Source of the DNA: a virus
Virus record (IMG/VR): IMGVR_UViG_3300027909_000017
Reading direction: 5' to 3' (one strand)
DNA: 64,000 nucleotides
Both the position numbers and the translations under genes were made by a program. Under the pieces are notes generated by a model. The model was given only the letters and a program-made list of their open reading frames with translations. It did no database searches and was not told where the DNA came from. Positions 8,831 to 35,276 of this stretch are shown here, one piece after another; the first letter of the stretch is position 1; each line of letters starts with the position of its first letter.

Positions 8831-9155
8831 ACTTTCTGTCGTGGTTCTATGTACTTACGTACCATACAATAGAACAACACCTAGATCTAAGCTTCACGAG
8901 AGGGAACATGAATGATGTTAAAACGAACATAGGTGTATGGTCAAAAACGCACAGATCTTTTTATAGGGGGTGGAGTCGCGTGCGCGCCCGCGCGCGCGTA
9001 TAGGCTTTCGATCGATCGATAATTGGCCCGCGGGCCTGGAGGCGCGACTCGGCGCGTCATCAGAAAACGATCACCGCGGACTTGACGCGCGGCCAGTAGA
9101 TCTGGCAAAAGCGAAGGTCCGCCCCGATGAACGTCTAGAATTCCCCAGCAAGAAA

Positions 9156-9185
9156 AAGCCCCAGGGCCGGGCGACCCTGGGGCTT
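9156..9185 (-). terminator. perfect 11-bp hairpin, minus-strand terminator-like
   Basis: AAGCCCCAGGG-N8-CCCTGGGGCTT preceded by an A tract on +. Confidence 0.5.
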
Positions 9186-9277
9186 GGAAGCGTAGAGATG
9201 CGACCTCTCCGCCAGGCAGAAACTACCGACAATCATGAGCGAGATCAAGCTGAAAACGCGGTCCTGTCGGGTGCCGT

Positions 9278-12037
9278 GTGCTGATCTCCCACTTCGACCA
9301 CGCCAAGGACAACGAGCCGAAACAGGCCGACATCACTTGGGAATTCTTCGCGGCGAACCTGGGACCCCACGACTTCACGCACCAGGTCAAGAAGTTCGTC
9401 CCCTGCTTCTCGCCGGCTGAGTACGACCTCAGCGACCCCGACGTCGTCCGGGACGACGCGTTCGTCCGCCGGCTCTCGCAATTCGTGCTCGACGTCGACG
9501 AGGTGCCGGAGGCGACGTTCCACGCGCTCGTCGGGTACGTGCAGCAGCTCGGCCTCGCGGCCGTCGTGTACTCGACGTGGTCGCACGCCGAGGCGCTCGC
9601 GACGACGGGGCTCTGGAAGTTCCGCGTCGTCGTGCCGCTCGACGTGCCGGTCGACGCCGCGCGCTGGCGCGAGTTCTGGGCGAAGGCGAACTACGGCGTG
9701 TTCAACGGCGTCGGCGACCCGAAGTGCTGCAACGAGAGCCGGCTCTACTTCGGCCCGTTCGCGCCGCCCGGCACCGAGGCGGTGAACTTCTTCTTCGTGA
9801 TCCCGGGCCAGCCGCTCGAGACCGCGCGCGTGTTCTCGCTGCCGCTGCCGGAGGGTGTGTCGCGCACGCGCGACGCGGAGGACGAGCAGAAGTTCCGGAA
9901 CAACACCCAGCAGGCGATCGACCTGCTGGCCGCGGCGTGGCCGCCGCGCCGTCGCCATGAGGCACACCTCGCGCTCGCGGGCGGGCTGCTCGGCTCCGGC
10001 TACCCCGACGACGCCGCGGTAGAGTTCCTGTGCGCGGTCGCGCGCGAGCACGCGGGCAGCGACGAGGAGCGCGACAAGCGCGAGAGCGCCGTCGCGCACA
10101 CGCGCGAGCAGGTCGACACCGGCGGCAACGTCACCGGCTGGACCACGCTCGCGTCGATCATCGGCTACGAGGTCGTGGAGAAGGTCCGCGCGCTGGTCGA
10201 GAAGCCGCCGGACATCTCCGGCGACCAGCTCAAGCGCTACGCGAAGCACTTGCAGCGGACGAAGAACAAGGACGACCTCGGCGACGCGCTAGCGCGCGTG
10301 TGCGAGGGTCGCGTGTTCCCCGAGCCGCTCGCGCTCCGGCTAGCCGCCGAGCTCGGCGCGCGCTTCCCGGAGTACGACCCGAACTCGATCGCGCAGCACT
10401 TCGACCTGTCGATCAAGGCGATGCGCAAGGACGGCGAGGGCGTGTCCGTCGCGCAGGTCGCCGCGCGCGTCAAGCAGCGGCAGGACGAGGTGCGCGTCGC
10501 ACGCGCCGAGGCGCGCAAGGAGATCGAGCAGAAAGAGCAGGCGGTCGCCGGCGACAAGGCGAACCGCATCCGGCAGTCGTTCAACAACGGCCGCTCGCAC
10601 CCGTACACGATCGACGAGCTGCGCCAGTTCCAGCCGGTGATCGGTTCGGGCCACCAGTGGATCTTGCAGAAGGACCGGTCGTTCTACTTCTTCCACTTCG
10701 GCCGCTTCCGCGGACCGTACACGGAGGCCGAGGCGCACAACGCCGCGCTCCGCGAGCTCGCGCCGGCCGCGAGCGCGGGCGTCGAGCTCTACAAGTTCAC
10801 GAAGGACGGCAGCGCCGACTTCAAGTCCATGCGGCAGCTCGTCGCCGAGTACGGCTCGGTCGCGGACGAGCTCCTGATCGACATGCGCGCGCAGGCGACC
10901 AGCTACGACTTCACGACGCGCACCATCGTCGAGGCGCCGTGCCCGCTGCGCCCGATCGCGGCGCGCTACCACGCGGACGTGGACGAGTGGCTCTACCACC
11001 TCGCGGGGCCGGCGTACTGGGAGGACCTGAAGACGTGGCTCGCGATCCTGCCGCGGCTGGATATCGTGCGCGTGGCGCTGTTCCTGACCGGGCGGCGCAG
11101 CCTCGGAAAAAGTTTGCTGGCGCTCGGCTGCTCGCGCCTCTGGACCACGCGCGGGCCCACGTCGCTCAACGCCGCGTTCGGCGCGTTCAACGACATCGTC
11201 GCGAGCTGCCCGCTCTGCTTCGCTGACGAGCAACTGCCCAAGGACTACCGCGGCTACACGATGAACCCGGAGCTCCGGCACCACATCCAGGCGACCGAGC
11301 GCCTGTACAAGCGGAAGTTCCTGCCGAACGGCAAGCTGCTCGGCGTGACGCCGACCATCGTCGCCGCGCACGACCCGTCGATCCTGCGCACGCCCGAGGA
11401 GCTCTCGAACAACGAGATCGAGGGCATCATGGAGCGCTACTTCCACATCCCGGTGCGCGACGAGGCCGGCGACTTCCTCGCGAACCTTCGCCCGACCACG
11501 TTCGAGCGCGGCTGGGTCGAGAACGACGTGATCGCCGAGTTCGTGTGGTGGCTCTACTACAACCACAAGCACGAGCAGCAGGGCCGCTTCTACATCAACC
11601 GGCCGGACCCCGAGAACACGCGCTGGCTCGCGACCTCGACCGGCGCGCGCAGCGCCGTGCTCCGCTGGCTGTGCAGCTACCTGGCCGACCGCATGAAGTT
11701 CGAGGGCGACGCGAACACGCTCATGCACGTGCGCGTGTACCAGGGGCGTCTACTCGTGAACATCAAGGGCTTGCTGCAATTCTGGGACAAGTACGTCGGC
11801 AACGAGAAGTGCCCGACGTCCGGGAAACTCGCGCAGACCATCGGCGAGCTCTCGACCGAGGAGCGCATCCAGCTCCGCGACGGGAAGAACGTCCCGACCA
11901 ACTACCGCGTGATCATCCAGGACAACTTGTTCGCGTGGGCGAAGAACAGCGGCTTCATCACCGAAGAAAAGATTCAGGAGGAATTGTTGATTGATTCCAA
12001 GCAGACGAGCGTCGGCCTCGTGCGCTCGCTTCGCTAG
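9278..12037 (+). CDS. AEP primase-polymerase fused to helicase (NrS-1/DUF5906-like)
   Basis: FVLDVD, YSTWSH, KFRVVVPL, RLYF; C-terminal Walker A GRRSLGKS, Walker B CFADE. Confidence 0.8.
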   Translation: MLISHFDHAKDNEPKQADITWEFFAANLGPHDFTHQVKKFVPCFSPAEYDLSDPDVVRDDAFVRRLSQFVLDVDEVPEATFHALVGYVQQLGLAAVVYSTWSHAEALATTGLWKFRVVVPLDVPVDAARWREFWAKANYGVFNGVGDPKCCNESRLYFGPFAPPGTEAVNFFFVIPGQPLETARVFSLPLPEGVSRTRDAEDEQKFRNNTQQAIDLLAAAWPPRRRHEAHLALAGGLLGSGYPDDAAVEFLCAVAREHAGSDEERDKRESAVAHTREQVDTGGNVTGWTTLASIIGYEVVEKVRALVEKPPDISGDQLKRYAKHLQRTKNKDDLGDALARVCEGRVFPEPLALRLAAELGARFPEYDPNSIAQHFDLSIKAMRKDGEGVSVAQVAARVKQRQDEVRVARAEARKEIEQKEQAVAGDKANRIRQSFNNGRSHPYTIDELRQFQPVIGSGHQWILQKDRSFYFFHFGRFRGPYTEAEAHNAALRELAPAASAGVELYKFTKDGSADFKSMRQLVAEYGSVADELLIDMRAQATSYDFTTRTIVEAPCPLRPIAARYHADVDEWLYHLAGPAYWEDLKTWLAILPRLDIVRVALFLTGRRSLGKSLLALGCSRLWTTRGPTSLNAAFGAFNDIVASCPLCFADEQLPKDYRGYTMNPELRHHIQATERLYKRKFLPNGKLLGVTPTIVAAHDPSILRTPEELSNNEIEGIMERYFHIPVRDEAGDFLANLRPTTFERGWVENDVIAEFVWWLYYNHKHEQQGRFYINRPDPENTRWLATSTGARSAVLRWLCSYLADRMKFEGDANTLMHVRVYQGRLLVNIKGLLQFWDKYVGNEKCPTSGKLAQTIGELSTEERIQLRDGKNVPTNYRVIIQDNLFAWAKNSGFITEEKIQEELLIDSKQTSVGLVRSLR

Positions 12038-12086: not shown

Positions 12087-12430
12087 GGGGCCGAATTAGT
12101 TTCGACGTGGGCAAAGAAGGACATCCTGACCGTGCAGCGTTACCGGACGCCAAAACCGGTCGTGCAACTGCGAACGACAACGCAATCGCTGACGTCGCGA
12201 AAGCGGCGTGAGTCGTCGGCTAGCGAGGAGCTCGAGTAGCGAAAGCCGGCGTCAACCACACGAGCTAGGCGCGTAGTTCTCGGTGCAAGCGCGTTCGAGA
12301 TAAAGCAACCGAGTGGTGGAGGGCACATCGCCCCCGAAGGTCGTCGGCGACCTCAACGCCGGCTACGCACGTGAGCGAGGGACGTCTGGAAGGTTCGCGG
12401 ACCCGGGTGCAATTCCCGGCGGCTCCACCA
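12087..12430 (+). ncRNA. ssrA: tmRNA; tag peptide ANDNAIADVAKAA*
   Basis: 5' GGGGCCG pairs with 3' CGGCTCC-ACCA including G3:U70; T arm CCGGG-TGCAATT-CCCGG; tag ORF 12170-12211 ending AA-stop. Confidence 0.95.
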
Positions 12431-18528: not shown

Positions 18529-18883
18529 GGACATCAGCCTCGAGCGGGCTCGCGAGCTCCGCGACCAGTTCTTGAAGGATTGGCCGGAATTCGCGCGCCT
18601 GCTCGCGAAGCTCAAAGAGGTGAAGCCAGTGAACAAGCACATGACGGTCGGCGAGCTCCGCCGAGCGCTCGAAGGCGTCGACGACTCGATGATCGTGATT
18701 GTCGAGCTCACGCTCAACGAGGACAACGGCGACGAGCACCACGTCGGCGGCCTGAGCGGCGTGAAGGTCGAGTACCGCTGCGCGGACAAGCCGGCGCTCT
18801 TTCTCTCGGGCGACCAAGAACCGGACGATTACGACCCTTACGAAGAAGGAGACGACGATGGGGACCAAGAGCAACCCGAGTGA
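18506..18883 (+). CDS. hypothetical acidic protein
   Basis: ORF tiling. Confidence 0.55.
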   Translation: MALPQKLEDISLERARELRDQFLKDWPEFARLLAKLKEVKPVNKHMTVGELRRALEGVDDSMIVIVELTLNEDNGDEHHVGGLSGVKVEYRCADKPALFLSGDQEPDDYDPYEEGDDDGDQEQPE

Positions 18884-19160
18884 GTACGACTGCTACGCGA
18901 AGCTCGAACCAGACGAGCCGTACTTCGTGCTCATGGGTCGTGACCCCGTCGCGTGGTTGGTCGTGGGGATGTGGTGCGTGTTTCGCGCCACGTACGCGGA
19001 CGAACCCGAGCGGATCAAAGAGGCGCGGCGGTGCGCACGCGCGATGAAGCAGTGGGCGATCGACAAGGGCAAGCAGGCCCTGATCGACAAGGTGCTCGAG
19101 ACGCTCGACACACTGTCACCAGGATTCGAAGTTCTCGAGACCTTCATCGAAGCGGAGTGA
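18858..19160 (+). CDS. hypothetical phage protein
   Basis: MGTKSNP...DCYAKLEPDEPYFVLMGRD. Confidence 0.65.
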   Translation: MGTKSNPSEYDCYAKLEPDEPYFVLMGRDPVAWLVVGMWCVFRATYADEPERIKEARRCARAMKQWAIDKGKQALIDKVLETLDTLSPGFEVLETFIEAE

Positions 19161-21295
19161 TGGCTCGCCTCTCCTACGGTCCGTGCCAGGTGTGCGGAGG
19201 CCCGATCCTGTATCAGGGTGCGGGCTTCTGCTCGCCCGACTGCCAGGGTCGCGCCGCGCTGCTCGGCTACCTCAGCCAGCGCAAGCCGCGCGCGCTCGAC
19301 ACCGAGACCGCGCTCACGCGGCGGGGACTGCTCGCCCCGCCGCTCGCCTGCTTGACGTGGAAGAACGCGTCCGAGCGCGGCATCGTGCACGCCAAGGAGG
19401 CCAAGGAGCACTTCGTCAGCATCTTGAACAGCGACGAGCTGATCGTCGGCTTCAACATCGCGTACGACATGACGGTGTGCTGCGCGGAGTGGCCCGACCT
19501 CATCCCGCTCGTGTTCGAGGCGTACCAGGCGGACCGGATCACGGACGTGATGTACCGGGAGAAGCTCCGCGACATCGCGGAGGGCACGCTCGAGTGGGGC
19601 GAGGACGACGAGACGCAGGAGCGCGTCTACCTGAGCTACAACCTCGAAGAGGTCGCGTACCGACGCTGCCGCATCAAGCTCAACAAGGGCGGTTGGCAGC
19701 TCCGCTTCGGTGAGCTCATCGACGTGCCGATGTCGTTCTGGCCGCTCGAGGCGCAGCAGTACGCGGTGATGGACGCGGTCGCGACCGAGGCCGCGTTCCT
19801 CGACCAGGAGCGCGAGGACATCGAGCGCGGCACGACCTACTTCGAAGACCAGTTCCGGCAGGCACGAGCGTACTTCTGGCTCCAGCTCATGGGCTGCTGG
19901 GGTTTCCATACTGAGCTCTCGGCCGTGCGCGAGTTCGCTCGCAAGGCCCAGCTCAAGTACGAGCAGCTCCGCGACGAGCTCGTGCACGCGGGGCTCGTGA
20001 CGAAGAAGACGAGCTCGAAGACCGGCATCACGAAGTTCACGAAGAAAAAGAAGCCGGTCCAGGACCTGGTCGTCGCTGAGAAGCTCTCGGAAGGAAAACA
20101 GGTCCAGCTCACCAAGACCGCGATGAAGCGGATCGACGAGCTCGAGGTCGCGCTCGAGAACGAGTACGTGCCCGCGAAGCGCGCGTCCCTCGAGCGGCAG
20201 ATCGAGAAGTGTCTCAGCTCGGTCGTCACCGACAAGGACGTGTGCGGGCGCGCGAAGAACCCGCTGCTCAAGAAGTACGCGGACCTCTCGCACTACGAGC
20301 ACATGCTGACCAGCGACGTGCCGCTGCTCATGCTCGGCACCGAGTACCCGATCCAAGGCAAGTTCGACCTGGCGAGCACGGGCCGCACGAAGAGCACGCT
20401 GCACCACGGCCTGAAGGGCAACACGCAGAATTGGTCAACGTCGAACGGGATGCGCGAGTGCGTGATGCCGCGTCCCGGCTGCGTGTTCGCGATCGGCGAC
20501 TTCGCGGGTTTCGAGCTCCGCACGTGGTCGCAGGTGTGCCTCTGGAAGTTCGGCCAGACGCGCATGGGCGAGATGCTGAACAAGGGCCTCGACCCGCACC
20601 TCGAGATGGCGTCGCTCATCCTGAAGATCCCGTACGAGCAAGCGAAGCTCGAGTTCGAGCAAGACCCGAAGGGCCGCGTGTACCTGCCGCGCCAGACGGG
20701 CAAGGTCGGCGACTTCGGCCTGCCCGGCGGGCTCGGCGCCGACCGACTCGTCGACTACGCGCGCACCTCGTACAACGTGATCCTCACGCGCGAGGAGGCG
20801 GTCGACCTGAAGGACCACTGGCTCAACGCTTGGCCCGAGGCGCAGCTCTACCTCAACGAGGGCACGCGCTTCATGGACGCCAAGGAGCGGCAGTGCGTGC
20901 AGTACATCAGCAACCGCGTGCGCGGCTGGCAGCGACCGAAGTTCACGGAGTACCTCAACAGCTTCTTCCAAGGGCTCGCGGCTGACGCGGCGAAGAATGC
21001 CGGCTTCCTGATCGCGTACGCCTGCTACGCGGACACGAGCTCGGTCCTCTACGGCTCGCGGCCGTGCATGTTCATCCACGACGAGTTCGTCGTCGAGGTG
21101 AAGGACGACCAGTACGCGAGTGACAAGGCGCACGAGCTCGCGCGGCTCATGGAGCTCGGCGCGTCGCCGTTCCTGCCCGACATCCCGCCCGTCGTCGAGC
21201 CCGTGCTGGCGCGGCGCTGGAGCAAGGCGGCGAAGCCGATCAAGGACTCTGGCGGGCGACTCGTCCCGTGGGAGCCGAAAGCGAAGGCGGCGTGA
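19160..21295 (+). CDS. polA: family A DNA polymerase with 3'-5' exonuclease
   Basis: Exo ALDTET, GFNIAYD, YAVMDA; Pol STGR, GDFAGFELR, RQTGKVGDFG, FQGLAAD, IHDE. Confidence 0.9.
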   Translation: MARLSYGPCQVCGGPILYQGAGFCSPDCQGRAALLGYLSQRKPRALDTETALTRRGLLAPPLACLTWKNASERGIVHAKEAKEHFVSILNSDELIVGFNIAYDMTVCCAEWPDLIPLVFEAYQADRITDVMYREKLRDIAEGTLEWGEDDETQERVYLSYNLEEVAYRRCRIKLNKGGWQLRFGELIDVPMSFWPLEAQQYAVMDAVATEAAFLDQEREDIERGTTYFEDQFRQARAYFWLQLMGCWGFHTELSAVREFARKAQLKYEQLRDELVHAGLVTKKTSSKTGITKFTKKKKPVQDLVVAEKLSEGKQVQLTKTAMKRIDELEVALENEYVPAKRASLERQIEKCLSSVVTDKDVCGRAKNPLLKKYADLSHYEHMLTSDVPLLMLGTEYPIQGKFDLASTGRTKSTLHHGLKGNTQNWSTSNGMRECVMPRPGCVFAIGDFAGFELRTWSQVCLWKFGQTRMGEMLNKGLDPHLEMASLILKIPYEQAKLEFEQDPKGRVYLPRQTGKVGDFGLPGGLGADRLVDYARTSYNVILTREEAVDLKDHWLNAWPEAQLYLNEGTRFMDAKERQCVQYISNRVRGWQRPKFTEYLNSFFQGLAADAAKNAGFLIAYACYADTSSVLYGSRPCMFIHDEFVVEVKDDQYASDKAHELARLMELGASPFLPDIPPVVEPVLARRWSKAAKPIKDSGGRLVPWEPKAKAA

Positions 21296-30069: not shown

Positions 30070-30518
30070 AGCTCAAGGACGGAAACATCGTCGACGTCTT
30101 CTCCGCGTGGTTGAACGTTGAGGGCAAACAAGAGACGATGAAGAACGGGAAGCAGGACGTCCCGGTGATCATCGCGGCCATCTCGTTCGTGCCGAAGATC
30201 GACGACATCCTCCCCGACGGCGTGGTCGAGACGGTGCCAGCCCACTTCCTGCTCATCAGCGGCGTCAAGAGCCCGAACGGCATCATGCCGTACACGGGGC
30301 TCGACCAGATCTGGGCCGACGAGGTGAAACGCGTGCGCCGCGAGTTCGTGCCCAACCAGGCGAACTTCGGTTTCGAGGAGGGCCCCTGCACCGAGGTCAA
30401 TGACGCCTACAAGGAGTGGTGGGAGGAGACGACCGACCAAACCGAAAAAGACGAAGATGACGAGGACGAAAAGGACCCGCCGCCTGCCCCGGAAGCGCAG
30501 CCCGCTGCTTCCTCCTGA
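30048..30518 (+). CDS. hypothetical protein
   Basis: ATG 6 nt after TATAGT, no SD. Confidence 0.7.
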   Translation: MQIIWRLELKDGNIVDVFSAWLNVEGKQETMKNGKQDVPVIIAAISFVPKIDDILPDGVVETVPAHFLLISGVKSPNGIMPYTGLDQIWADEVKRVRREFVPNQANFGFEEGPCTEVNDAYKEWWEETTDQTEKDEDDEDEKDPPPAPEAQPAASS

Positions 30519-30712
30519 TGCCCGTGGCGACCGACAAGATCCGCGTCACCGTCCGCATCAGTCCGGAGCTCCACGATAAGTTCATCCGGACCAGCGAGAA
30601 GTTGCGCCTGTCGCGTTCGGTCATCCTCGAGCAAGCGCTCTCGAACTGGTTGGGTCAAGATTCCATAGTGCTGAGCACTCGGAAGAAGAACGGTAACGGT
30701 CGAGCGCGATGA
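30518..30712 (+). CDS. ribbon-helix-helix regulator
   Basis: IRVTVRISPELHDKF...LSRSVILEQAL. Confidence 0.75.
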   Translation: MPVATDKIRVTVRISPELHDKFIRTSEKLRLSRSVILEQALSNWLGQDSIVLSTRKKNGNGRAR

Positions 30713-30909
30713 GCGGTGCCAACGGAAAGAAGAAGCGTTTTCACGTCTGCATCGACGAGGAGCTCTACGCGAAACTGGGTGCCGCGAGCCGCGAGCTCGG
30801 TGTCTCGCAGTCCGTGATCGTCGTGCAGGCACTCCGATCGTGGTTGCGCGGTCGGGGGAATCGGAGGAGATTCCTCGACAACGGCGGCTCGTCCGTCAAG
30901 GAGCTGTGA
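30709..30909 (+). CDS. ribbon-helix-helix regulator
   Basis: RFHVCIDEELYAKL...VSQSVIVVQAL. Confidence 0.75.
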   Translation: MSGANGKKKRFHVCIDEELYAKLGAASRELGVSQSVIVVQALRSWLRGRGNRRRFLDNGGSSVKEL

Positions 30910-30910
30910 C

Positions 30911-31234
30911 ATGGCCTTCCAAGCGGTCCTCGTCTACGACATGCTCACCGGTTATCAGAACAACGCCGCGTTGATGAACAAGGACCTCACGCCGCTAAGC
31001 GTGAGTTCCACTCTCGAAGCGCTGGGCTTCGACCGCGTGGGGGACATGACCGTCTCGACGAGCGGCCTGACCCTGCGCCGGACGATCACCGTGCGGACGA
31101 ATGCGGTCGGCGACCGGCTCTGGAACTCGGCTGATCAGGTGAAGGCGATCACGATGCGGCTGTTCCGGGGTGGCTTGGCCATGCTGCTGCCGAGTGTGGT
31201 GACGGCATCTGATCCAGTGGTTACAGAGGTTTGA
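30911..31234 (+). CDS. hypothetical protein
   Basis: AAGGAG RBS. Confidence 0.65.
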   Translation: MAFQAVLVYDMLTGYQNNAALMNKDLTPLSVSSTLEALGFDRVGDMTVSTSGLTLRRTITVRTNAVGDRLWNSADQVKAITMRLFRGGLAMLLPSVVTASDPVVTEV

Positions 31235-32829
31235 ATCGCATGTCGGAAGACGAAGAGAACGAGAGGGGCAGCAAGAAGAAGGGCCGGAAACGCACGCCGA
31301 CTCGGCGCGCGAACATCGCCCCGGGGCCGATGTACCCGTCCGGAACTCCGGTCGACCCGTCGACAGGTCTGCCGTACGACAATTACCCAATCGACGCGCG
31401 CACCGCTCGGCAGGTCGGTTATGACTCAGAGAGCGCGAGGGTGAACGCAGTCATGGGACACGTACAGAAGCGGAAGGCCGCGGGGGATACCAACATCCGA
31501 TTCAACGCACCCGAGCACGCGAAGTACCAGCTCGCGGTGAACGAGAATCCCGGAGCGCGGATCCGGTTCGAACAGGTCGAGCCCGTCGAGGACTACAACA
31601 TCCCGGAGTCCACGCTCGGGGCGCTACCCTCGCTCGGGAAAGCGATCGAGTACTTGAAGCGGCACCACTGGCGCGGGCAGCGCGCCGTCTACAAGTGGTA
31701 CGTCTACGACTCGACTAACTATCAAAAAGCTGCTGGTCGCATCCCATTCGACGTGCAGCAGGAGGAAGAAGTGGTGCAGCAACCTCCCGGCAACAATGGT
31801 CAGCCGCCTTATCCGGGCATGATGCCCGGGATGCCAGGTATGCCCGGTTTCGGCGTGCAAGGCACACCCGGCTTCCCTCAGATGCCCATGAACCCTTGGG
31901 GCATGGGCATGCCGATGATGCCGTTCCCGTTCGCGATGCCGTACCAGCAGCAGGCTGCGCCGCCGGTCGCGCCTCCGCAGCAGGTGCCGCCGCAACCGGC
32001 GCAGGGCCAGCCGCAGATGCCGTTCCCGTACCCGATGCCGGCCGGGATGGATCCGAATGTCGTCAACATGCTGCTTGCGCTGACGCGAGAGAATGCCGCG
32101 CTCGTTGAGGAAACGCGCCGAGCCGCGCAGCAGGCGCAGGCGGGTCAGCAGCCGGTGATGACGCCGCAGATGATGTACATGATGATGACGATGTACCCGT
32201 GGATGTTCCCGGGCATGACCGCGCAGCAACAGCAACAGCAGCCCAAAGAAGAGCCGAAACCGGAGAAGCCCAAGACGCCGATCGAGCAGATGAAGGACAC
32301 GATCGGGATGATGCAGACCGTCGCGAGCATGGGTCGCAAGTTCGCTACCGACTTCAGCCCCGAGGACGCGGAGAAGCCGGACCCGAACCGACAAGAAGTG
32401 AACGAAGACGCCTACCCGTACGTCGTGAAGGAGTTCCCGCACTGGCGCATGGTCGTGAGCAAGGACGGAGAACCCGTCGACGCGGCGACGTCGGTCGCGC
32501 ACAACCTCGACAAGGTGCAGGAAGGCGTGCGTGGCCTGTTCAAGGAGATCCGCGAGGGCGTCAAAGAGTTCATCGAGCACAAGGACAACCAGGTCGAGGC
32601 GAAGAGTCGCCACGAGCAGGAGGCCCTCGAGCGCAAGCAGGTCGAGTTGAAGCTCGCGCAGGAGCAGATCAAACAGCAGGAGGAGGCGTTGCAGCAGGGC
32701 GAGCGCATGGTGACCTTGCAAGAGCGCATGGCGCGACTCGGCATCACGCCCAACAACGCCCCAAACGGCAACGCACCCGGTAACGTGCCGCCGTCACCTA
32801 ACGGCAGCGGCGTCGCGGATCCGCAGTAA
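31231..32829 (+). CDS. hypothetical protein with Pro/Gln/Met low-complexity region and coiled coil
   Basis: 532 aa ORF; start may be ATG 31239. Confidence 0.75.
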   Translation: MNRMSEDEENERGSKKKGRKRTPTRRANIAPGPMYPSGTPVDPSTGLPYDNYPIDARTARQVGYDSESARVNAVMGHVQKRKAAGDTNIRFNAPEHAKYQLAVNENPGARIRFEQVEPVEDYNIPESTLGALPSLGKAIEYLKRHHWRGQRAVYKWYVYDSTNYQKAAGRIPFDVQQEEEVVQQPPGNNGQPPYPGMMPGMPGMPGFGVQGTPGFPQMPMNPWGMGMPMMPFPFAMPYQQQAAPPVAPPQQVPPQPAQGQPQMPFPYPMPAGMDPNVVNMLLALTRENAALVEETRRAAQQAQAGQQPVMTPQMMYMMMTMYPWMFPGMTAQQQQQQPKEEPKPEKPKTPIEQMKDTIGMMQTVASMGRKFATDFSPEDAEKPDPNRQEVNEDAYPYVVKEFPHWRMVVSKDGEPVDAATSVAHNLDKVQEGVRGLFKEIREGVKEFIEHKDNQVEAKSRHEQEALERKQVELKLAQEQIKQQEEALQQGERMVTLQERMARLGITPNNAPNGNAPGNVPPSPNGSGVADPQ

Positions 32830-32889: not shown

Positions 32890-33786
32890 GTGCAACTCCA
32901 AGAGCTTGTCACCACGATCCGACCGCACCCGTGGGGCGAGGCCGGTGTCCGGAGCTCGCTGGATGAGGTTGCGCGCTACGTCTCGAAAGGCATCAGCAAC
33001 CCGTACGTCCGCACGTTCGCGATCGACAAACTAGCCGAGGCGCAGGCTCGCGGCATTAATGTCGACACGTCGCGCGGACGCGCCGAGGTGCTGCTCGAGG
33101 TGTTTCAGCGCGAGAAACTGTGGGTGCCGGACCCGGTCAATGCCGAGTACATGCCCGAGGCTCACCTCATCGCGTGCGACCCCAACAAGCCGCACGTGAC
33201 GCCCGAGGGCAAGACGCTCGTCTGCAAGAGGGGCGACGACTGCGACGGTAAGACGATCGGACTCGGCGCGTGCTTCGGCGCGGTCGGGTTGAACAGTGTG
33301 GTCGTCGGGCACGGTTACGACCCCGATGGTGGTCGCATCGAGCACGTGCTGACGATGGTCTGGCTCGGGAAGCGTTGGCACTACGCCGACCCGAGCTTGA
33401 AAGAACTGAAACTTGGCCAGTGCGTGCCGTTCACGCGCGAGCGCGTGCTGAGCGTGCCGAACGTGCAGGTGCTCTGCGACGCGAGCTCGTGCATGACCGG
33501 CCAGGAGACGCGCTTCAACCCCGACGACATGAACTTCGTCAACGAGGGGATATTCGTCGGCGTCGCCGGCGCGCCGAACTCGCTCGCGGGAGTGCGCTCG
33601 CCCATCGTCTGGGTGACGAACGAAAAGCCGATGGTGCAGTGGCTCGGTTCTATCGGCGAGACCGCGGCGCAAAACAACCAGACCGCGCAGCGCTTCACCA
33701 CACTGGAGAAGATCTTGCTCGCGGGAACTTTCATCAGCGCGACCACGCTCGCGCTCGAGCTCTACGACCGCACGAGGCAGCTATGA
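32890..33786 (+). CDS. transglutaminase-like cysteine protease with C-terminal TM
   Basis: Triad motifs GDDCDG, IEHVL, WHYADPS; tag IVWV..VQWLG before a hydrophobic C-terminus. Confidence 0.75.
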   Translation: MQLQELVTTIRPHPWGEAGVRSSLDEVARYVSKGISNPYVRTFAIDKLAEAQARGINVDTSRGRAEVLLEVFQREKLWVPDPVNAEYMPEAHLIACDPNKPHVTPEGKTLVCKRGDDCDGKTIGLGACFGAVGLNSVVVGHGYDPDGGRIEHVLTMVWLGKRWHYADPSLKELKLGQCVPFTRERVLSVPNVQVLCDASSCMTGQETRFNPDDMNFVNEGIFVGVAGAPNSLAGVRSPIVWVTNEKPMVQWLGSIGETAAQNNQTAQRFTTLEKILLAGTFISATTLALELYDRTRQL

Positions 33787-34724
33787 ATTGGGTAAATCCT
33801 ATCAAGATCCCGGCAGAATTGAAGCGTCTTGGTCTCGGTCAAGCAGCCGATCCGAATCTAGACGCTTGGGCACAGATGATCACCGCGCTTCGCGACAGCG
33901 TCCAACTTTCTTGGAACGCTGCGAAGGCTTCGTACCTGGGTCTGAAGAAGGTCCGCGAAGATCTCGGTCTGCCGTTCATCGCGGCGCCGAGCGGAGAAAC
34001 TGATGCGAATGTTGGAGCGTGGGGCGCCGACCTCGACCAACAAGCCGTCGACTTGCAGGCCATCAACACGATCCTGATCAACGCCGCTAACGACGTCCTC
34101 GAGAACAAGCGCAAACTCATCTGGGATCCGACTCTGAAAGAGTTTGTCATTGAGGCGTTGCCCGACGACGTCGTGCGCGTGGAGAACGTCGGCGGCAAAC
34201 CGACGCTGGTCCTGATCACGACCGGCGCCGCCACTCACAGCACCGGCACGATCGGTATCGCGCCGCTGGCGATCGGTGCTGGCGTCGCGGTCTTGGCCGT
34301 CGTCGCCGGCATCGGTCTCTACTCGTTGGTCAAGGACACGAACGCGACGATGCGCTCGCTCGCGGAGCAGAAGACGACGCAGACGCTCTCAAACAATCAA
34401 GTGAAGATGATCGAGAAGGGCGCTACGCCGGAGCAGGCGGCGCAAGCCACCAAAGCGGTCACCGACGGAGTCGCGTCGATTAAAGAAGCTGACGCGAAAC
34501 TCGAGCAAGCGAAGGCCGGAGGAAAAGACGTCGACGCTTGGACTAACTTGATCAAGACCGGCGGATTCATCGCGCTCGGTCTCGGCGTTCTCTACATCGT
34601 CGCGCAACTCGTACCGAAGGGCGGTGTGCGTAGCACAGCACCGGCGATGCCGATGCAAGAGAACCGTCGGCGTCGTCGGCGTCGGTCGAATCGGACCAGG
34701 ACTCGAGCCGCCTACGCGAGGTGA
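33783..34724 (+). CDS. tagged virion membrane protein (MNWV), two TMs, QEN-poly-Arg tail
   Basis: ATG 33783 coupled; TMs IAPLAIGAGVAVLAVVAGIGL and FIALGLGVLYIVAQLV. Confidence 0.75.
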   Translation: MNWVNPIKIPAELKRLGLGQAADPNLDAWAQMITALRDSVQLSWNAAKASYLGLKKVREDLGLPFIAAPSGETDANVGAWGADLDQQAVDLQAINTILINAANDVLENKRKLIWDPTLKEFVIEALPDDVVRVENVGGKPTLVLITTGAATHSTGTIGIAPLAIGAGVAVLAVVAGIGLYSLVKDTNATMRSLAEQKTTQTLSNNQVKMIEKGATPEQAAQATKAVTDGVASIKEADAKLEQAKAGGKDVDAWTNLIKTGGFIALGLGVLYIVAQLVPKGGVRSTAPAMPMQENRRRRRRRSNRTRTRAAYAR

Positions 34725-34730
34725 TGAGCC

Positions 34731-35276
34731 GTGGCACGTCCTCAGATCGCAAAAACCACCGTGTGCGACAGTCGCGAATGTCGCCGCGTAAACCTGCTCG
34801 TTCGTGGCACGCACATCGAGCTCGTTTCTGTCGAGCGAGTGCGCGAGGTCGGTTACCACAAACTCGACTACTATAAGATGCCGAGTGACGTGAAGTTTCC
34901 AGCGGAATATGTGCTGGTTCAGGACACTTCAGGCGAAGCGCTGCGACGCTGCGACTTCTACATCGTGCGCGCGAAGTCGAGTGGGTCGATCGTGGGCCAC
35001 GATACGAGTGACAAAGTTCTGCGTGATGCAGAAGAGTACTTTCGAAACGGACGACGCATGTCTTCGACGAATGTCGACATCCCAAACGGAGCGTGGCATC
35101 GTCTCGGGAAGGTACAGTTCATTCGGTATCGCCGCTGGGGACATGCGAAGGGTTTTTACGAGCACGAGTACTCACCGACCGTCGTCTTGCAACAGACGGC
35201 GAGCGGAGCGCGTGCGTGGCGACTCCCACTACCTGGTGGATGTCAAGTTGACAGTAGAGGTTTCGGTTGGCCATGA
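34731..35276 (+). CDS. hypothetical protein in the morphogenesis module
   Basis: ORF between membrane and core-like genes. Confidence 0.7.
   Translation: MARPQIAKTTVCDSRECRRVNLLVRGTHIELVSVERVREVGYHKLDYYKMPSDVKFPAEYVLVQDTSGEALRRCDFYIVRAKSSGSIVGHDTSDKVLRDAEEYFRNGRRMSSTNVDIPNGAWHRLGKVQFIRYRRWGHAKGFYEHEYSPTVVLQQTASGARAWRLPLPGGCQVDSRGFGWP

Follow-up and report, generated by a model that had tools for sequence, protein, structure and literature searches.

A transglutaminase-fold Cys-His-Asp enzyme fused to a tagged tail-anchor in the assembly block of an uncultured virus group

Coding status, fold and active site of P0001

The window analysed here, meaning the whole 64,000-nucleotide stretch of the IMG/VR virus record IMGVR_UViG_3300027909_000017, has a G+C content of 62–68% and is coding almost wholly on the + strand. 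The virus is large, tailless and uncultured and infects bacteria. Our subject is the gene at positions 32890–33786 (+), which encodes a 298-residue protein, P0001, with a predicted transglutaminase-fold catalytic domain and, fused behind it, a tagged tail-anchor. The open reading frame (ORF) begins with GTG, has a G+C content at third codon positions (GC3) of 0.86 and matches the local coding signature. A word-indexed search of metagenomes recovered the identical 298-residue protein and 55 more homologue clusters (56 in all, every one metagenomic and without a name), and the ORF is a genuine coding sequence. Exhaustive HMMER searching extended the family to 375 representatives at E ≤ 1e-3, with 192 at E ≤ 1e-10. 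No match was found by tblastn in 50,697 phage records, and a search for hosts or prophages with the close-subfamily alignment A4 returned nothing from 185,579 species genomes.

The structure of P0001 was modelled with AlphaFold2 from a 35-sequence family alignment (A1), which also served, as a hidden Markov model, for the alignment of 197 family members. The model reached a predicted local distance difference test (pLDDT) score of 85 and a predicted template modelling (pTM) score of 0.73, with pLDDT above 90 over most of residues 16–200. The catalytic domain spans residues 16–235 (32935–33594, +) and consists of an N-terminal three-helix part (residues 16–74) and an α/β core; fold matches cover residues 3–216. 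A profile search found nothing significant among the sequences in the PDB, and the fold was recognised through structure only. Foldseek against the PDB gave peptide N-glycanase (PNGase) 2f4m as the best hit (E 1e-4), followed by Rad4/XPC, the putative Cys protease 3isr, TglA and the animal transglutaminases TG2 and TG3. Comparison with 48,161 chains using VIA-align yielded the putative protease 3kd4 (Z-score 11.7), factor XIII (11.2), TG3 and TG2 (10.6) and PNGase (10.2), with further matches to 3isr (9.9), LapG (9.2), PeiP and PeiW (8.4 and 8.1), vasohibin (7.7) and N-acetyltransferases (approx. 7). Inactive members of the fold, Rad4 and protein 4.2, are also among the structural matches. A transglutaminase fold had been put forward from the letters of the DNA alone (the sequence-only reading), and the AlphaFold2 model, the Foldseek E-value of 1e-4 and the VIA-align Z-scores of up to 11.7 bear it out.

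The motifs GDDCDG, EHV and ADPS, which the same reading had picked out as a catalytic triad, are present where it placed them, run in the order Cys-His-Asp and are conserved in about 195 of the 197 relatives. The nucleophile Cys118 (codon 33241–33243, +), within GDDCDG, stands at the start of helix 118–131 in the model and is kept in 194 of 195 aligned sequences. His152 (33343–33345, +), within EHV, is present in all 197, and Asp167 (33388–33390, +), within ADPS, is Asp in 186 and Glu in the other 11; the model places these two residues on strands 150–159 and 162–166, respectively. Cys118 lies between two Asp residues in the run Asp117-Cys118-Asp119 (33238–33246, +), the point at which some relatives carry an intein, and both flanking residues are strongly conserved (Asp117 in 180/194, Asp119 in 195/195). 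The same is true of Asp81 (189/189), Glu184 (191/195), Trp163 (193/197), Cys196 (185/186) and Cys201 (175/187). Across approximately 197 sequences, down to about 35% identity, the triad is near-invariant. On the predicted structure and this conservation, P0001 is a Cys-His-Asp enzyme of the transglutaminase/papain-like superfamily (Pfam clan Peptidase_CA), and one that is apparently catalytically active.

Two pairs of cysteines lie outside the triad. Cys96 and Cys112 (33175–33225, +) occur together in 106 relatives and are both missing from 52, with 26 discordant, while both members of Cys196-x4-Cys201 (33475–33492, +) are present in 173. Because Cys96 and Cys112 are lost together, and independently of the near-universal Cys196 and Cys201, two separate pairs are likelier than a single site, and a four-Cys zinc site of the kind found in PNGase was rejected. 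The conservation pattern suggests that both pairs are probably disulfides.

Profile searches place the protein only at superfamily level. Transglut_core (PF01841, gathering threshold 23 bits) does not match P0001 even at E 1, and 7 of the 35 relatives match it weakly (best E 8e-4). Its cut-off is passed by a distant relative in the related locus L022 (23.8 bits) and by gp34 of the virus SSIP-1 (29.6 bits). Since only homologues pass, we place P0001 in a family of its own, whose link to PF01841 runs through them. An LEA_3a match (23.9 bits) was rejected as spurious, being under the cut-off and falling on the helical N-terminus. Neither P0001 nor 20 long relatives (400–1132 residues) contain a cell-wall-binding domain, pseudomurein-binding repeats (PMBR) included, and nothing informative apart from inteins was found as a domain fusion in those 20.

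The tag, the tail-anchor and the conserved gene block

Direct listing showed that about a dozen proteins of the window start with a short Trp-containing tag (W tag) of the form M-(R/K)-V-x-W-V, often followed by RRV(E/Q)WLG. With a strict pattern, and given imperfect gene calls, the tag was counted at 5 of 25 N-termini in the window, against an interior rate of 0.05 per 40 residues. In G002, a complete relative, it begins 9 of the 24 structural-block proteins (for example ...RWSGQ, ...RWLGQ and ...LWLGE). A reading of its Arg pair as a twin-arginine (Tat)-like signal was discarded, as inspection by eye showed no hydrophobic core after RR.

P0001 has the same tag at residues 239–253, followed by a linker and, in the AlphaFold2 model, a C-terminal helix at residues 271–297. 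The first element, IVWV (33604–33615, +), forms the C-terminal end of the ancestral enzyme; its Trp241 is kept in 78 of 102 aligned sequences, and the element is found in short forms without an anchor as well. The second, MVQWLG (33631–33648), opens a module running from Met248 to Leu298 (33631–33783, +) that continues through the linker to a hydrophobic helix (33700–33780). Both elements had been noted in the sequence-only reading, and they are kept in close homologues. The N-terminus of P0001 is hydrophilic and belongs to the folded domain, and the C-terminal segment is the sole hydrophobic one outside the core. The core of the helix (residues 276–292) is moderately hydrophobic, with a mean Kyte–Doolittle value of about 1.3 by hand count, so the transmembrane segment that was expected to follow the tag is probable rather than certain.

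Elsewhere in the window, tagged proteins begin with the tag, and its internal position in P0001 can be traced to a gene fusion. In the related locus L003 the enzyme has 248 residues and no anchor, in L005 it stops three residues past WLG, and in both the next gene is a separate small one (53–62 residues) with the tag first and the anchor last. Residues 248–298 of P0001 align end to end with the stand-alone 53- and 62-residue genes (E 1e-7 and 9e-9), and Met248 coincides with their start codon. Several more family members terminate right at a WLG-like motif. By these alignments, the tag and anchor of P0001 are a fusion with a small tagged tail-anchor protein, and the tag is internal because that protein was fused on. 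The claim that the enzyme carries the sorting tag itself thus stands in so far as the tag is that of the neighbouring virion proteins, but it does not extend to the position, which is internal via the fusion. Most of the distant homologues have one or two transmembrane segments after a long uncharacterised insert. The codon of Met248 (33631) could still serve as an internal start for making the small anchor protein alone, and no clear ribosome-binding site was seen there by eye.

Gene order around the enzyme was followed by tblastn. Every related locus has the genes in the order p532, enzyme, p313, p181, p595, a 404-residue capsid-type protein and two smaller jelly-roll proteins, and more distant contigs repeat the same order of gene lengths. 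The upstream partner p532 (31231–32829, +), syntenic in L002–L006 and without a family match, has a basic N-terminus and a coiled-coil C-terminus and, between them, a low-complexity region rich in Pro, Gln and Met in which a run of Gln and a Lys/Pro stretch occur. Its composition suggests a scaffold-like protein or, possibly, a cross-linking substrate. Downstream, p313 (33783–34724, +) is also syntenic and has an N-terminal tag, then a C-terminal transmembrane segment followed by QEN and an Arg tract. The small protein p181 (34731–35276) is kept even in the most distant relatives, L012 and L022; its C-terminal end, ...G-C-x-x-D-x-x-G-F-x-W-P, looks invariant, and it has no family match. Five proteins connect L022 to the window. 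Searches of IMG/VR with the enzyme alignment A1 and with a capsid-protein alignment (A2) retrieved the identical five contigs of 41–97 kb, one of them complete with terminal repeats. These patterns of co-occurrence mark the enzyme as a core or hallmark gene of the group's assembly block. The supposition that it is the first gene of a tagged operon found no support: a scan for promoters and terminators to define operon limits gave no signal, and the conserved block begins one gene earlier, with p532.

Whether tags ever occur without the enzyme was examined with tag-bearing p313 as a metagenome probe. It identified 11 loci, and in all 10 with enough upstream DNA the enzyme lies just upstream; no tagged genome without the enzyme was found. 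The support from this is weak, since synteny extends over the entire gene block and the loci all come from one lineage. The distribution across the wider family indicates that the enzyme is older and more widespread than the tag, and it bears its own tag only where the virus uses tags. An enzyme that is cargo of the tag system therefore fits at least as well as one that processes the tag; on the simplest view, the tag serves to load or position proteins and the enzyme is among its cargoes.

Relatedness to SSIP-1 gp34 and clues to the chemistry

The best fold match to P0001 in the BFVD was a 304-residue protein (E 8.6e-9), which we equate by length only with gp34 of SSIP-1 (JN880423), a 304-residue product annotated as a 'structural protein' by the depositors. 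Aligned with A1 using hhalign, gp34 gave a probability of 96.5% and an E-value of 8e-10 over 127 columns, with all three catalytic motifs in register. When nine structural-block proteins of the window were compared with SSIP-1 by tblastn, only the enzyme matched (E 1.9e-6). By these comparisons P0001 and gp34 are homologous in the catalytic domain. SSIP-1 is a tailless membrane-containing phage; its gp34 is similar in length to P0001, has a C-terminal hydrophobic anchor and is encoded early in the structural gene block, and a homologue of the enzyme is thus annotated as particle-associated. The two proteins share only about 23–27% identity, however, and gp34, which passes Transglut_core where P0001 does not, lacks the W tag and is not alignable beyond the Asp motif; equivalents of PFTRER and of Cys196/Cys201 were not found in it. 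ORF33 of SSIP-1, in the same position as p532, is not annotated as structural and has no sequence similarity to p532.

Inserts were found in 29 of the 197 relatives, exactly between Asp117 and Cys118 (33240/33241 in window coordinates), among them P0033, P0035, P0049, P0052, P0055 and P0064–P0067; P0001 itself has none. They are 136–347 residues long and comprise mini-inteins of 136–186 residues and full-size forms of 318–347 residues with LAGLIDADG. Where the N-terminal junction aligns cleanly (about two-thirds of the 29) the inserts begin with Cys-Phe, and a TxxH motif is visible. All 29 end in Asn or Gln before Cys118, about half of them in Gln, and the usual penultimate His is missing throughout. 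Profile matches were weak for Hint, Vint and Intein_splicing and reached 23.0 bits for LAGLIDADG_3 (cut-off 22.5). These sequence features identify the inserts as class 1 inteins. Since Cys118 is the intein +1 residue, the enzyme would work only after exact splicing, and an intein lying exactly at the nucleophile marks the site as conserved and indispensable.

A clue from the gene neighbourhood comes from L022, in which the gene directly upstream of the enzyme (8967–9941, +) encodes, besides an N-terminal hydrophobic segment, a chagasin-type inhibitor domain of family I42 (score 52.8 bits, cut-off 27.2). A second, weaker I42 copy lies 8 kb away (2104–2721, −). Inhibitors of this type target papain-like proteases, and the neighbour in L022 points to a protease.

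The acids flanking the nucleophile offer a further parallel. In the bacterial proteases LapG and DvhG, an acid-Cys-acid motif binds the calcium that these enzymes need (PMC13090378, PMC4359373), and mutation of D316-C317-E318 in DvhG kills the protease (PMC13090378). Asp117-Cys118-Asp119 of P0001 resembles the DvhG motif and, by analogy, may form a LapG-type calcium site with Asp81. If such a site is real, the low calcium level of the cytoplasm would keep the enzyme inactive there. We consider peptidase chemistry the most likely for the enzyme.

Possible roles of the enzyme

Our best guess, which we hold tentatively, is that P0001 acts as a maturation peptidase whose targets are particle proteins of the virus itself. 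As an active cysteine hydrolase of the transglutaminase fold it would be built into the particle at an internal membrane, with its catalytic domain on the capsid-facing side, where the fused tag and anchor would hold it near p532 and close to the tags at the N-termini of about a dozen membrane proteins. Candidate cut sites would be the Gly that closes the tag (...WLG, cut before the next residue) and, in the N-terminal arms of the capsid proteins, comparable hydrophobic-Gly sites. This proposal is supported by the position of the gene ahead of the capsid genes and next to scaffold-like p532, and by the closest structural neighbours, which include putative and proven proteases (3kd4, 3isr and LapG). 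What tips the balance towards maturation is the company of a scaffold-like gene and, in L022, of an inhibitor gene. Stated in full, the idea is that a whole lineage of large tailless bacterial viruses with a membrane, so far undescribed and with SSIP-1 as a member, has in this enzyme a packaged, membrane-tethered, calcium-gated maturation protease or transamidase. It would cut or link the short Trp/Gly tags carried by capsid arms and by a dozen membrane proteins of the particle, after closure or release; in this complete form we think the idea unlikely.

Cleavage had been suggested at LG or at EN. By the predicted topology, the EN sites that follow transmembrane segments would lie across the membrane from the catalytic domain, and the N-terminal tags on the same side as it. 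If a shared motif is cut, the Gly of the tag is thus a better candidate than EN, because it would be on the same side of the membrane as the catalytic domain. The tract of EN and basic residues seen in window proteins is resembled by one in L022, where the enzyme (10001–12007) and another membrane protein (18791–20041) end in ...N-P-R-R-R-R tracts after their transmembrane segments. A hydrophobic-Gly-(Gln/Glu) motif (IGE, LGQ, IGQ, GLGQ, LGE or FGE) was observed by eye 15–35 residues from the start of the 404- and 222-residue jelly-roll proteins, in the window (37141 and 38456) as well as in L003, L005, L006 and L022. As a universal cut site, 'hydrophobic-Leu-Gly-Gln/Glu' was rejected for want of statistical enrichment in the window or in distant relatives; it remains a lead.

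Two groups of known proteases resemble the proposed enzyme in different ways. LapG and DvhG (BTLCP, PF06035, MEROPS C93) share the fold (Z-score 9.2 over 140 residues), the Cys-His-Asp triad and the presence of acidic residues beside the nucleophile. Their substrates are membrane-associated and are cleaved at a short conserved motif close to the N-terminus. A Trp loop (GWxQ) conserved in LapD keeps LapG at the membrane, which is loosely reminiscent of the W tag. In contrast to viral P0001, which has no signal peptide and a C-terminal anchor, LapG is a soluble periplasmic protein with a signal peptide that acts in a cyclic di-GMP circuit, and its substrate motif is (T/A/P)AAG where that of P0001 would possibly be ...WLG. 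Adenain (C5), poxvirus I7L (C57) and pS273R (C63) of African swine fever virus (ASFV) are similar in the proposed mode of action, in which one packaged Cys protease trims many precursors at Gly-ending motifs. These three are Ulp1-like clan CE enzymes with the order His-Glu/Asp-Cys, whereas P0001 has the transglutaminase fold and the order Cys-His-Asp, and none of them is among the listed fold matches.

Several observations count against a maturation role, or against tag processing as its purpose. One is the lack of precedent: to our knowledge the membrane-containing tailless phages (PRD1, PM2, P23-77 and SSIP-1) do not mature by proteolysis, and we know of no maturation protease in any phage of this kind, which makes for a low prior. 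Tag-less relatives are another. Where distant relatives have the enzyme in the same place, W-tag N-termini number 0 of 12 in L012, 0 of 13 in L022 and 1 of 15 in L020, looser hydrophobic-Gly patterns in these three loci show no N-terminal enrichment, and no W tag is visible in SSIP-1 although gp34 is present. The idea of a dedicated processor of the tag is somewhat weakened by this distribution. The model does not dock the enzyme's own tag in its active site (residues 230–265 have pLDDT 42–59), the residue that follows WLG varies among the window proteins, and the anchor is missing from about a third of close homologues. The disulfide-like Cys pairs would suit an extracellular role. Nor do database profiles help: Pfam, PHROGs and NCBIfam gave no credible match to P0001, the I42 domain is absent from the window and was seen in one lineage only, and PF06035 matched none of the 35 family members and, at E 10, nothing in the entire records of two related viruses, which rules out membership of the LapG family.

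The strongest alternative, although we regard it as rather unlikely, is a particle-borne enzyme for entry (or lysis), an anchored Cys peptidase or isopeptidase that cuts host wall peptides or wall-lipoprotein links alongside a viral transglycosylase once the internal membrane meets the envelope, much as the peptidase part of many wall hydrolases of virions does. PRD1-type phages as a rule have wall hydrolases in the virion, and extracellular action would accord with the disulfide-like Cys pairs and the possible calcium site. Of SSIP-1 proteins, gp34 is annotated as structural, and ORF54, which is also tail-anchored, has by eye a transglycosylase-like start. The structural neighbours PeiP and PeiW (Z-scores 8.4 and 8.1; psiM2 PeiP was also found in the BFVD) are phage-encoded Cys-His-Asp enzymes of the same fold, from (pro)phages of methanogens (MEROPS C71). 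They are, however, soluble lysis enzymes with pseudomurein-binding repeats that act on a different host wall; P0001 lacks the repeats, and no wall-binding domain was found among the 20 long relatives. An entry enzyme would also be out of place in a conserved assembly block beside scaffold-like p532, and a neighbouring chagasin-type inhibitor makes little sense without a cytoplasmic substrate.

It seems improbable that the enzyme performs some other acyl-transfer or amidase reaction at the membrane, as a deamidase, N-acyltransferase or lipid-acting enzyme that would not cut proteins and would use the tag only for loading into the particle. The fold matches do include arylamine N-acyltransferases, protein glutaminases and PNGase, and in most lineages the enzyme is membrane-tethered, but the N-acyltransferase matches are weaker (Z-scores 6–7.5), no features for binding coenzyme A or lipid were seen, and a peptidase is indicated by the I42 neighbour as well as by the acid-Cys-acid motif. 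Quite improbable, in our view, is a true transglutaminase that would form isopeptide links from Gln of the N-terminal tags or of p532 to Lys of capsid or membrane proteins, riveting membrane proteins to the shell after release. Its attractions are a fold and triad like those of factor XIII, TG2 and TG3 (Z-scores 10.6–11.2), the calcium gating typical of transglutaminases, the Gln runs and Lys/Pro-rich stretch of p532, and the Gln that many relatives have directly behind the Gly of the tag (WLGQ, WSGQ, WRGQ and GLGQ). That Gln is not conserved in the window proteins, however, the 298-residue enzyme lacks the extra β-sandwich and barrel domains of animal transglutaminases, most studied prokaryotic members of the superfamily are hydrolases, and the I42 neighbour in L022 again points to a protease. 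A catalytically dead structural protein that keeps the fold, as Rad4/XPC and band 4.2 do among the matches, is very improbable given a triad and several nearby residues that are near-invariant over approximately 197 sequences and inteins at the nucleophile that need exact splicing.

A conserved, tagged enzyme near the head of an assembly block, with a homologue in SSIP-1, provides a handle on maturation and on the sorting of membrane proteins. Were it a protease, it would represent a third, unrelated fold among virus maturation proteases, beside the assemblin/HK97 and adenain types; should the maturation proposal prove true, the system would parallel that of the adenovirus protease (AVP) while using an unrelated fold, and jelly-roll viruses of prokaryotes would have their first example. 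If it forms cross-links instead, it would be the enzymatic equivalent of the HK97 chainmail. The gene is also the best sequence marker joining this uncultured group of 70–120 kb viruses to SSIP-1, and it is a new, recurrent home for inteins.

Some further observations concern related phage proteins and other features of the window and its relatives. Proteins of uncultured phages, 187–270 residues long and labelled 'transglutaminase-like superfamily' in the ESM Atlas, match residues 3–206 of P0001 in predicted structure with template modelling scores, by row, of 0.77–0.88, a root mean square deviation of 1.8–2.5 Å and a feature score of 0.92. The likeness is structural; unlike P0001 these proteins are soluble, with neither tag nor anchor, and the few members with a record carry the label Uroviricota. 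Just upstream of the structural block in the window are two tandem genes of 64 and 66 residues (30518–30909) for ribbon-helix-helix-like regulators, one of which ends in ...NWLGQ, taken as a chance match to the tag. The related locus L029 lies within the GenBank whole-genome-shotgun record WNGF01000319.1 (84,992 bp), and its assembly may indicate the habitat or host. On the 71 kb contig of P0031, a 572-residue gene with a faint HerA_C match, some 10 kb upstream of the enzyme gene, may bear on the packaging motor. Finally, ARAGORN identified a transfer-messenger RNA (tmRNA) gene in the window at 12087–12430, with a tag peptide ending in ...KAA.

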